NCBI GenBank assembly: GCA_017381715.1
Contig: JAFOBR010000050.1
Coordinates: forward strand, 1-63,266
Source of the DNA: Clostridia bacterium
GTDB lineage: Bacteria > Bacillota > Clostridia > Oscillospirales > CAG-382
DNA: 63,266 nucleotides
Direction of reading: 5' to 3'
Shown: piece by piece, positions 20 to 17,134 of the stretch
Layout: every line of letters begins with the position of its first letter
Numbering within the stretch: the stretch's first letter is position 1
Position numbers and translations under genes: made by a program
The notes under the pieces: model-generated
Database searches by the model: none
Told to the model about the DNA's origin: nothing
Seen by the model: the letters and a program-made list of their open reading frames with translations, nothing else

Positions 20-211
20 CCAAGCCGTAGGCTTGGCATATCATCACCGCACAACGTGCGGTGTATATCATCAGCCCCTCGGGGCTGTATCTCATCACGC
101 GCCAGCGTGCATTTTCTTGCGGCTTGATGATATACAATGCTTCGCATTGATGATATACCGCAATAAGTTGCGGATGATATCCACGCCTTCGGCGTGATGT
201 GCGCTTCGCGC
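20..211. repeat. Hairpin-linker array 1: eight different GC-rich stem-loops joined by a conserved A/T-rich linker, arranged as two mutually inverted blocks
   Basis: Stem-loops at 20-36 (CCAAGCC/GTA/GGCTTGG), 47-61 (CCGCAC/AAC/GTGCGG), 74-85, 96-109, 135-149 (CAATGC/TTC/GCATTG), 158-173 (CCGCAA/TAAG/TTGCGG), 182-196 (CACGCC/TTC/GGCGTG), 201-211. Linkers CATATCATCA 37-46, TGTATATCATCA 62-73, TGTATCTCATCA 86-97, then the reverse complement TGATGATATA at 125-134 and 148-157 and GGATGATAT at 172-180. Period 23-27 nt. Confidence 0.85.
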
Positions 212-730: not shown

Positions 731-757
731 TTAGCATCTTTTCTGTCAACACGTGCC

Positions 758-7813: not shown

Positions 7814-7927
7814 CGGAAAGTACGAGTAGAGCACAGTGCGTTAAGTATCGGCAGGATGGGAGTGAGGCCGCCGGGCGAAGGAGTTTACTCCGCGGTACTG
7901 TGTTCGCATCCGCGTTCGGCTTTTCCG
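7814..7927 (+). promoter_or_regulatory. THF (tetrahydrofolate) riboswitch aptamer
   Basis: GAGUAG...GCGUUAAGU...GGAUGGGA...CGAAG...CGCGGU...CGCAUCCGC blocks in the order of the folT-motif consensus (compared with the Eubacterium siraeum THF aptamer from memory); upstream of folT. Confidence 0.85.
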
Positions 7928-16948: not shown

Positions 16949-17025
16949 CGGGGTGTGGCTCAGTTTGGTAGAGCGCTTGGTTCGGGACCAAGAGGCCGGA
17001 GGTTCAAATCCTCTCACTCCGACCA
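16949..17025 (+). tRNA. tRNA-Pro (anticodon CGG), CCA encoded
   Basis: Acceptor CGGGGTG/CACTCCG, anticodon stem CTTGG/CCAAG with loop TTCGGGA, T-arm GGAGGTTCAAATCCTCT, 77 nt. Confidence 0.9.
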
Positions 17026-17028
17026 AAA

Positions 17029-17057
17029 ATCGACAGGTTTCAACCTGTCGATTTTTT
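17029..17057 (+). terminator. Intrinsic terminator after tRNA-Pro
   Basis: ATCGACAGG/TTTCAA/CCTGTCGAT followed by TTTTT. Confidence 0.85.
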
Positions 17058-17134
17058 ATCTATTGCAAAGAACTGTATTTTGCTTTCGCAATATGTTATA
17101 ATACTTAAAAAAGCGAATAATTTTTAAAAACACC

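Follow-up and report, generated by a model that had tools for sequence, protein, structure and literature searches.

The repeats closest to the element reported here are the repetitive extragenic palindromic (REP) sequences and bacterial interspersed mosaic elements (BIMEs), together with the REPIN-RAYT systems, of Proteobacteria. These are multi-copy, extragenic and situated at the 3' ends of transcription units; their short GC-rich palindromic units form clusters in both orientations, a conserved single-stranded motif stands at the foot of the hairpin, and they are prone to recombination. An array of hairpins with the same properties occupies positions 20-212 of a stretch of 63,266 nucleotides from a Clostridia bacterium (contig JAFOBR010000050.1; the whole stretch is called the window below). 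It belongs to a multi-copy family of intergenic repeats in the Oscillospirales/Christensenellales (gut Clostridia), which is undescribed as far as could be found by literature search. The family consists of lineage-wide, terminator-anchored arrays, in which strand-polar units with a fixed linker and kept pairing form blocks on opposite strands, accompanied by a covarying bracket and by turnover of units.

The array differs from REP and BIME elements in several respects. Its stems are free (62 different arms) and its linker is invariant, whereas in REPs the palindrome is conserved. The units measure 13-25 nt against 20-40 nt in REPs, and their orientation follows two blocks, three left units and then three right units (LLL, RRR), instead of alternating. 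At the hairpin foot, CA...TG continuing into TAT-NNN-AT stands in place of GTAG, the host belongs to the Clostridia, and no RAYT gene is present among the recurrent open reading frames (ORFs) of about 99 loci of 8 kb. Because conserved stems, a GTAG foot and alternating orientation are absent, and no RAYT gene was found in these loci, we consider the array a relative of REP/BIME elements and not a member. A preliminary description of the window, made from the sequence alone, had not recognized the array as a REP/BIME type; this holds in that it is not a canonical member, but REP/BIME is nevertheless the closest known analogue.

Positions 20-212 (193 nt) contain eight perfect, non-overlapping hairpins. 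In 2000 dinucleotide-preserving shuffles there were 0.59 on average and never more than 4, which excludes a chance origin of the hairpin density. Elsewhere in the window the maximum is four hairpins per 193 nt, and that stretch is itself a second array (798-859). The motif GATGATAT occurs 10 times in the window where 2.15 are expected, five of them inside the main array, in which three ATATCATC linkers are followed by three GATGATAT linkers. Single-strand folding gave z-scores of -8.2 (DNA, + strand), -7.6 (DNA, - strand) and -7.0 (RNA). The stem-loops were found where the preliminary description had placed them, with the loops GTA, AAC, CTCG, GCCA, TTC, TAAG, TTC and TTC; their stems measure 5-8 bp and not the 4-7 bp given there, because the linker CA...TG extends each stem. 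The linkers also read as described: hairpins 1-3 are followed by (TG)TAT(A/C)TCATCA, hairpins 5-7 are preceded by the reverse complement TGATGATAT(A), and the complementarities between left and right linkers are present as inverted-repeat pairs. The promoter it had reported at 235-262 was found as well, and bases 1-19, which it had taken for part of a terminator, are the 3' half of one that is visible whole in L001, a near-identical metagenome contig. The parts of the array are as follows.

1-19, + strand: 3' arm and T-tract of the upstream terminator T0; its A-tract and 5' arm immediately precede the window, and the full form is seen in L001 at 2700-2735 (AAAAAATTCCAAGTC TTCG GACTTGGGATTTTTTT), directly after tRNA-Cys
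20-36, + strand: first hairpin H0, CCAAGCC GTA GGCTTGG, 7 bp, with the junction (T)ATC in front
35-46, + strand: left linker L1, GGCATATCATCA, with CATATCATCA at 37-46
45-63, + strand: hairpin hp1, CACCGCAC AAC GTGCGGTG, 8 bp
62-73, + strand: left linker L2, TGTATATCATCA
72-87, + strand: hairpin hp2, CAGCCC CTCG GGGCTG, 6 bp
86-97, + strand: left linker L3, CTC variant, TGTATCTCATCA
96-109, + strand: hairpin hp3 (the fourth hairpin), CACGC GCCA GCGTG, 5 bp
110-125, + strand: centre with the switch of orientation, made up of a truncated linker (CAT), a spacer rich in T and then CTTGCGGCTT (116-125)
124-136, - strand: right linker R1 (reverse complement of the left linker at 125-136), TTGATGATATACA on the + strand and TGTATATCATCAA on the - strand
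135-149, - strand: hairpin hpR1, CAATGC TTC GCATTG, 6 bp; on the - strand the loop is GAA, in a GCGAAGC core
148-159, - strand: right linker R2, reverse complement of the left linker
158-173, - strand: hairpin hpR2, CCGCAA TAAG TTGCGG, 6 bp
172-183, - strand: right linker R3, GGATGATATCCA
182-196, - strand: hairpin hpR3, CACGCC TTC GGCGTG, 6 bp
197-212, - strand: truncated linker (ATG) and an extra hairpin TGCGC TTC GCGCA (5 bp, 200-212), both shared with the orthologous array in locus L095
235-262, + strand: sigma-70-type promoter (TTGAAA-16-TATAAT; TG precedes the -10 hexamer) serving the downstream lipoprotein gene at 287-730

The complete T0 in L001 reads AAAAAA-CCAAGTC TTCG GACTTGG-TTTTTTT (CCAAGTC TTCG GACTTGG GATTTTTTT); in that contig a five-tRNA operon ending in tRNA-Cys lies upstream of window base 1, and T0 follows it at once. 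The sequence CTTGCGGCTT at 116-125 is an inverted partial copy of the 5' arm and loop of H0. The promoter lies outside the repeat and forms its right boundary.

A collection with one genome per species was scanned for three GATGATAT motifs spaced 10-22 nt apart. At least 120 matching stretches were obtained, so that further copies in related Clostridia were found as the preliminary description had predicted for this check. About 99 of the 120 matches listed are hairpin/linker arrays, and the rest are coding sequence or simple tandem repeats. A strict automatic test, which asks that both spacers be perfect hairpins of at least 5 bp, was passed by 72 of the 120 genome matches listed and by none of the 119 pattern matches in viral contigs, all of which are coding or AT-rich tandem repeats and none a hairpin array. 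The chance estimate of about 0.7 matches ignores tandem repeats, as these viral matches show. The arrays come from metagenome-assembled genomes (MAGs) labelled Acutalibacteraceae, Oscillospiraceae, Eubacteriales, Clostridia, Christensenellaceae, Ruminococcus and Ca. Limivicinus, from ruminant, camel, horse and human gut. All are intergenic and follow terminators, and several loci carry two copies within 8 kb. Typical arrays were also seen on short contigs of MAGs labelled Spirochaetales (L040) and Kiritimatiellia (L113), for which binning errors are more likely than true occurrence.

Plasmid and phage collections gave no similarity to the array by blastn. Rfam gave no hit to the window's array at gathering score and nothing relevant at E values up to 10 on L001 2150-3700, and the constant part is only 12 nt, in agreement with the preliminary description, which had recognized neither a named RNA family nor a CRISPR array here. 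The regular alternation of constant and variable parts does recall CRISPR arrays and plasmid iterons. In contrast to CRISPR arrays, whose repeats measure 23-50 nt, the spacers here are palindromic, the blocks are inverted and there are no cas genes; unlike plasmid iterons, the array is unphased and has no rep gene, its neighbours being tRNA and ordinary genes. Searches of the full-text literature with the linker sequences returned primers only, and no description of the element was found in the literature on REP-like or tRNA-downstream repeats in Clostridia or on the four-helix-bundle protein family discussed below.

The architecture was derived from 64 family elements oriented on their terminator, with L and R denoting linkers in left and right orientation and hp a hairpin. 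The 5' part of a typical copy is CCA AAAAAA-[T0 hairpin]-TTTTTTT ATCC-[H0]-T ATATCATC A-[hp1]-TGT ATATCATC A-[hp2]-TGT ATCTCATC A-[hp3]-TGYAT, and the 3' part is A/T-rich spacer-[inverted half H0 copy]-GATGATAT RCA-[hpR1]-TT GATGATAT GCA-[hpR2]-T GATGATAT ACA-[hpR3]-TGATT. H0 has a conserved position in all oriented elements and is always preceded by TTTTTTATCC, and the blocks end in truncated linkers (...hp3-TGYAT; ATC(C/A)-hairpin...). The order LLLRRR is dominant (53 of 119 linker clusters), LLRRR and LLLLRRR occur as variants, and RRRLLL was never seen among the 119 clusters. One-directional arrays of 3-9 units exist, and unequal numbers of left and right units are common. An element consists of three to four top-strand units followed by about three bottom-strand units, each unit being CA-[free stem 4-9 bp]-[G(N)NA loop]-[stem]-TG and then the spacer TAT-NNN-AT.

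In unit orientation the linker has the consensus G-Y-ATATCATC-A, 90-100% conserved in the position matrix, and its CA and TG ends add two pairs to every stem. The 184 distinct perfect units contain 62 distinct stem arms, which are unrelated even inside one array; the conserved part is thus the linker and not the hairpin, as had been noted for the window alone. In our reading the linker would split as TGTAT-NNN-ATCA, with ATC as the usual middle triplet. A CTC variant is present exactly once per element in 41 of the 64 family members, usually at L3. Spacing between linkers in the left block ranges from 19 to 31 bp (up to 48 bp) without helical phasing, which argues against a phased double-strand-binding array and against the iterons at a fixed 23-27 bp that had been proposed earlier; this variation fits extruded hairpins of which only the linkers are read. 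Sister arrays with other linkers were observed in L015 (TATGTAATCA, after tRNA-Asn) and in L066 2135-2416 and L008 4905-5100 (TATGGAATC), the change being confined to the middle of TGTAT-NNN-ATCA in both. The flanks of L065 and L067 carry a sister-array linker of the form (A)TGAAAT(A)/ATTTCAT.

Pairing was assessed in an alignment of 44 LLLRRR copies. The hairpins together with one long-range helix are paired in 97.9% of cells, compared with 77.8% in column shuffles, and their covariation score is 0.496 against 0.131, a value that none of 500 shuffles reached. Both-sided changes occur in 27 of the 40 pairs, one-sided (wobble) changes are almost absent, and shifting the partner column abolishes the pairing of the hairpins. 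Pairing is thus maintained by changes on both sides in homologous copies, as the preliminary description had proposed. The long-range helix joins TTAT-CC-[H0 5' arm + loop] to [centre]-TTGATGA, and RNAalifold picks it as a 15-pair "big stem" (alignment columns 3-18 with 129-143), 8 of the 15 pairs being changed on both sides, including positions in the H0 loop. The longest run over which H0 can pair with the centre has a mean length of 9.4 nt, compared with 5.8 nt for permuted partners, and there are at least eight covarying sequence types. H0 and the big stem compete for one 5' arm and are therefore mutually exclusive; viewed as duplex, the same relation is a covarying inverted repeat of 10-15 bp that brackets the left block. 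In the window the big stem is weaker, its loop part containing two G.T positions. The possibility that the inverted repeats of H0 and the centre enclose an invertible segment was considered and rejected, no inverted isoform being found among loci or strains.

The stems contain 813 Watson-Crick pairs, 3 G.T pairs, no A.C pairs and 4 other mismatches. As a strand test, the G.T to A.C asymmetry (3 to 0) involves too few mismatches, but their rarity is itself informative. Among the 184 distinct perfect units, read on the strand where the linker follows its hairpin (the linker-3' strand), loops of the form G..A outnumber T..C loops by 98 to 4 in both blocks together, each block showing the bias, which indicates that the units are strand-polar and that the two blocks lie on opposite strands. 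The informative strand is the top one for left units and the bottom one for right units, so that no single transcript satisfies both. The commonest loops are GAA, GCA, GCAA, GGA, GTA and GTCA, closed by C-G and mostly triloops; most of the GNNA tetraloops are not GNRA, and many units contain GCGAAGC exactly. GNA triloops and non-GNRA GNNA tetraloops are the mark of unusually stable DNA mini-hairpins, not of RNA. Many units carry, on the linker-3' strand, the d(GCGAAGC) and d(cGNAg)/d(cGNNAg) mini-hairpins; the stable DNA loop motifs d(cGNAg) and d(cGNNAg) were reportedly described by Hirao and colleagues and by Nakano et al. in 2002. These are physico-chemical motifs, in contrast to the genetic element described here. 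Both the loop types and the scarcity of wobble pairs speak for hairpins formed by DNA and not by RNA.

Every oriented element is preceded by a terminator with A-tract, hairpin and T-tract, followed by the junction ATCC. This is a strong, bidirectional-looking intrinsic terminator, in most cases that of a tRNA or transfer-messenger RNA (tmRNA) unit and in others that of an mRNA unit. The end of a same-strand tRNA lies 53-63 nt before the first linker in half of the elements (32 of 64), with 18 anticodons represented. Where no tRNA was detected, several elements stand behind the tRNA-like 3' terminus of tmRNA (...GCTCCACCA) or behind conserved modules of the 3' untranslated region (3'-UTR). ARAGORN places an array after 43 of the 61 tRNA/tmRNA cluster ends in the array loci; as this sample is biased and 18 ends have no array, the association is strong and not obligatory. 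Terminator hairpin types recur, CCAAGTC..GACTTGG being found behind Cys, Arg, Gln, Thr, Leu and Val tRNAs, and the terminator therefore appears to be part of the repeated module. Only 4 nt separate the T-tract from H0. The upstream terminator is a GC-rich hairpin followed by a U-tract; the units fail that test in a terminator scan, in which only 96-109 is flagged. No conserved promoter was found on either side of the array, which lies outside obvious transcription units.

Several other sequences were observed at these positions. The 3'-UTR modules GCATCTTTTyTGTCAACACGnGCC and TTGCTATTTTrrnCTGTAAACAC stand directly before the terminator A-tract of array-carrying protein genes, in the window (733-757), in L095 before its second array, and in L054, L067, L083 and L092. 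Behind some tRNAs (L044, L095 and L115; tRNA-Tyr/tRNA-Gly) the post-terminator position holds hairpin-less tandem repeats of the TTCACT/ATTCAT type, for example CACTATTCACTCTTCACT. Fragments resembling a tRNA T-arm (GAGTTCGAAT..., ...GTTCGAACTACCCA) and a common ATCTTTTTTGTAGCC motif adjoin several arrays, at the right flanks of L020, L022, L029, L057, L058, L108, L110 and L120 and upstream of L115, L040 and the second array of L087; the fragments may derive from tRNA 3' ends of the kind that integrative elements leave behind. In L038, L089 and L119 the nearest same-strand tRNA ends given by ARAGORN lie 220-286 nt before the array, and a tRNA-like end is seen directly before the terminator (...CCTTCTCCGCCA, ...TTTCCCGCACCA, ...ATGGGTCACCA). 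These may be unusual or interrupted tRNA genes missed by ARAGORN.

In 12 of the 64 oriented elements the first downstream gene encodes a four-helix-bundle protein of about 115 residues, whose start lies 62-93 nt past the last linker (L028, L037, L054, L062, L065, L081, L083, L084, L085 and L092 have it at the right flank). The protein matches TIGR02436 (E = 1e-20) and PF05635, "23S rRNA intervening sequence protein" (E = 4e-18), and is Avd-like; the closest solved structure is 2RLD, and the isoelectric point is 8.4. The linkage was checked in reverse on 80 metagenome loci (L247-L326) with relatives of at least 86% identity. An array precedes the gene in all 52 loci that have at least 300 nt upstream, mostly ending 62-65 nt before the start codon, and the upstream contexts of these arrays, tRNAs or others, number at least 20. 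The gene with its promoter behaves as an indel exactly at the right end of the array. The window itself has no homologue in its 63 kb. This gene is the best lead to a candidate protein partner of the array.

Evidence for turnover of units comes from comparisons between loci. In L054 and L124, at a tRNA-Arg locus, the flanks are almost identical and the left block and R3 are shared, and the R1 and R2 hairpins are swapped. In L075, blocks of three units are tandemly duplicated. The window array corresponds to array A of L095 up to R3 and to array B of L095 from R3 onward, so that the two genomes differ by a segment of gene, terminator and array between identical direct R3 units. The stem arms include a series that differ by single base pairs and are all perfectly paired (AAAAC, AAGAC, AAGGC, AATGC, AACAC). 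Four near-identical metagenome contigs show a single-nucleotide polymorphism (SNP) only, at window base 181 in R3, where the window has a non-consensus C and three of the four contigs have A, restoring the consensus; there is no inversion or change of unit number among the four.

Taken together, we tentatively favor a REP/BIME-like family whose palindromic units would function as hairpins of single-stranded DNA and whose linker would be the site recognized. The units would be single-stranded DNA mini-hairpins in which the hairpin is required as a shape alone, and the linker at its foot a putative site of recognition, cleavage or recombination for a protein. Each block would present its recognizable strand to whatever enters from outside, and arrays would grow, shrink and swap units through recombination at the linkers. 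Such a recombinogenic array would be tolerated or useful behind terminators as a possible transcription or supercoiling barrier, and a cis effect, if any, would be that of a barrier or insulator behind strongly transcribed stable-RNA genes. It is also possible, but on balance doubtful, that this is a strand-specific DNA repeat system in which a dedicated protein recognizes the fixed 12-nt linker at sequence-free mini-hairpins, the four-helix-bundle protein being partner or passenger and the arrays marking or insulating tRNA/tmRNA 3' ends. The linker may resemble the nick sites of HUH enzymes (CTTGAT of pC194/phiX174, TTGAT of ISDra2).

Several points weigh against a REP/BIME-like family. The recurrent ORFs of the approximately 99 loci include no HUH/RAYT-type or other enzyme gene, an ABC transporter and the four-helix-bundle gene being the only neighbors that recur. 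The hairpin-linker units have neither the conserved stems nor the alternating orientation of canonical REPs. Within its 63 kb the window has a single canonical copy, besides one short variant and one minimal form, and there is no sign of ongoing activity, since the near-identical strains show one SNP only. The single-stranded state of the array DNA is an inference. Much of the covariation is switching among limited hairpin types (the 62 arms) and not stepwise compensation, and copying or template-switch correction of quasi-palindromes could yield pairing without selection on structure.

If a REP/BIME-like family is the correct reading, the Oscillospirales and their relatives, abundant and mostly uncultured gut bacteria, would carry their own counterpart of REP/BIME with an inverted logic, free shape and fixed linker. 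The systematic placement behind stable-RNA genes would then give a handle on the ending and insulation of strongly transcribed units, the arrays would promote recombination by which small genes come to lie beside tRNA loci, and they would serve as a convenient metagenomic lineage marker. The linkage in 52 of 52 loci would provide a concrete function hypothesis for the four-helix-bundle/23S rRNA intervening sequence proteins. On the more doubtful reading of a strand-specific repeat system, this family, for which no function has been assigned in decades, would gain its first testable ligand.

The arrays could instead act at the RNA level as bidirectional back-up terminators or insulators, the units being weak terminators with a GC-rich hairpin followed by UGUAUAUCAUCA; the left block would stop read-through from tRNA/tmRNA genes and the right block opposite transcription. 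We consider this unlikely. In its favor, the array directly follows a terminator, its left units face rightward and its right units leftward transcription, and the divergent order is never seen. Its hairpins are GC-rich in a genome of 42% GC. They point outward at either side and, like Rho-independent terminators, have loops of 3-4 nt and a tail rich in A/U; a terminator-like score was obtained for the fourth hairpin with CATTTTCTTG behind it. BIME elements, moreover, attenuate transcription. On the other hand, the tail is a fixed sequence and not a U-tract: the linker has 5 U in 12 bases and is 90-100% invariant, beyond what a U-tract needs, and the terminator scan accepts only one of the eight hairpins. 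Unlike RNA hairpins, the units have hardly any G.U pairs, and their loops are predominantly triloops and non-GNRA tetraloops. A strong terminator is also already present in front of the array.

A second alternative is a double-stranded operator or iteron array, in which a protein, possibly the four-helix-bundle protein, binds the 12-bp linkers in a two-fold symmetric complex and controls the promoter at the right end. The invariant linkers, their 3+3 inverted copies and the array before the close four-helix-bundle homologues in 52 of 52 loci agree with this, as does the last hairpin arm, which with ATT gives TTGATT, 17 nt and TATAAT in 14 of 60 elements. Binding to duplex DNA leaves the palindromic spacers and the G..A polarity of the loops unexplained, however, and the linker spacing is unphased. 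A promoter adjoins only about one-quarter of the arrays, and convergent terminators lie behind some of them. The four-helix-bundle family is not known to bind DNA sequence-specifically. We regard an operator array as rather improbable. The idea that the array is a general -35 donor or promoter element was rejected, as it holds in only 14 of 60 elements.

Mobile elements offer a third alternative, for which the prospects are slightly poorer still. The array would be a miniature inverted-repeat transposable element (MITE) made of two transposon ends with three subterminal transposase sites each (Mu/Tn7-like), homing downstream of tRNA/tmRNA genes, or a folded single-strand recombination site similar to integron attC. 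The layout LLLRRR is natural for transposon ends: the L1-3/R1-3 sites of Mu, the ends of Tn7 and derived MITEs share with it 3+3 inverted sites of about 12 bp and TG...CA ends, the linkers starting with TG and ending with CA. The fixed distance and orientation to conserved tRNA/tmRNA genes recall Tn7-like homing, and adjoining genes differ between strains, as in the four-helix-bundle indel and the gene-plus-array indel of L095. Palindromic spacers are, however, not a feature of Mu or Tn7 ends, no target-site duplication was seen at the boundaries, and the loci show no transposase or integrase among recurrent neighbors and no longer autonomous relative. The difference between L095 and the window is explained by plain recombination between identical R3 units, the terminator is itself part of the repeated module, and the left and right blocks are separated by genes in none of the 120 matches listed. 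With attC the array shares a conserved structure with free sequence, an apparent dependence on a single strand of defined polarity and a position between strain-variable genes, but it has many small hairpins in place of one long imperfect hairpin and lacks an integrase. No attC core sites R''/R' (RYYYAAC/GTTRRRY) are visible on reading the array, and the closing inverted repeat, ATCnAAGCCGACAG-like, varies between copies.

The preliminary description had also suggested that the linkers zip into a ladder of multiway junctions, and a structured non-coding RNA or single strand with such four-way junctions is indeed the minimum-free-energy single-strand fold, with z-scores of -7 to -8. We nevertheless consider it very unlikely, because the ladder pairs (L1:R3, L2:R2, L3:R1) show no covariation across the 44 family members. 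Their pairing amounts to 94.0% of cells, compared with 94.3% after shuffling. Their covariation score of 0.037 lies below the 0.045 of the shuffled data and was equalled or exceeded by 499 of 500 shuffles; on these grounds the ladder was rejected as a functional structure. The variable Y/R position of the linker is independent between ladder partners (Fisher p > 0.5), ladder column 97:144 is unpaired in 22 of the 44 sequences, and variant 8-mers are compensated in none of 41 cases. Unequal left and right numbers are frequent and one-directional arrays exist. The array also lies between a terminator and a promoter, with 4 nt from the T-tract to the first hairpin, there is no conserved promoter on either side, and Rfam has no match. 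The complementarity of left and right linkers arises because the right-orientation linkers are inverted copies of the left ones, a caution that an impressive minimum-energy fold (z = -8) with complementary linkers can have no comparative support.

That the array is a neutral product of local duplication, the outcome the preliminary description would have accepted had no further copies existed, is hardly credible, since tandem duplication and unit exchange do occur in arrays but the same architecture is found in about 99 species-level genomes of several families behind at least 18 different tRNAs, with hairpins about 98% paired and a loop polarity of 98 to 4.

Two further members of the family were located in the window.

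798-859, + strand: second, short one-directional array of three hairpins with the loops GCAA, AAC and GAA and the linker CATCAT, directly after the terminator at 758-792
17058-17093, + strand: minimal relative, ATC TATTGCAAAG AACTGTATTTTG CTTTCGCAATA, downstream of the other tRNA in the window (16949-17022) and of a terminator belonging to the same family

The second array follows the polarity rule of the main array with a different linker. The minimal relative amounts to the big stem alone, with TGTAT in the loop and without hairpin units; it (window 17026-17102) abuts the extended -10 promoter TGTTATAAT of a gene resembling those for extracytoplasmic function (ECF) sigma factors. An ordinary feature of the window is a tetrahydrofolate (THF) riboswitch at 7820-7917 (68.9 bits), which is situated upstream of genes for a membrane protein and a folylpolyglutamate-synthase-like protein.

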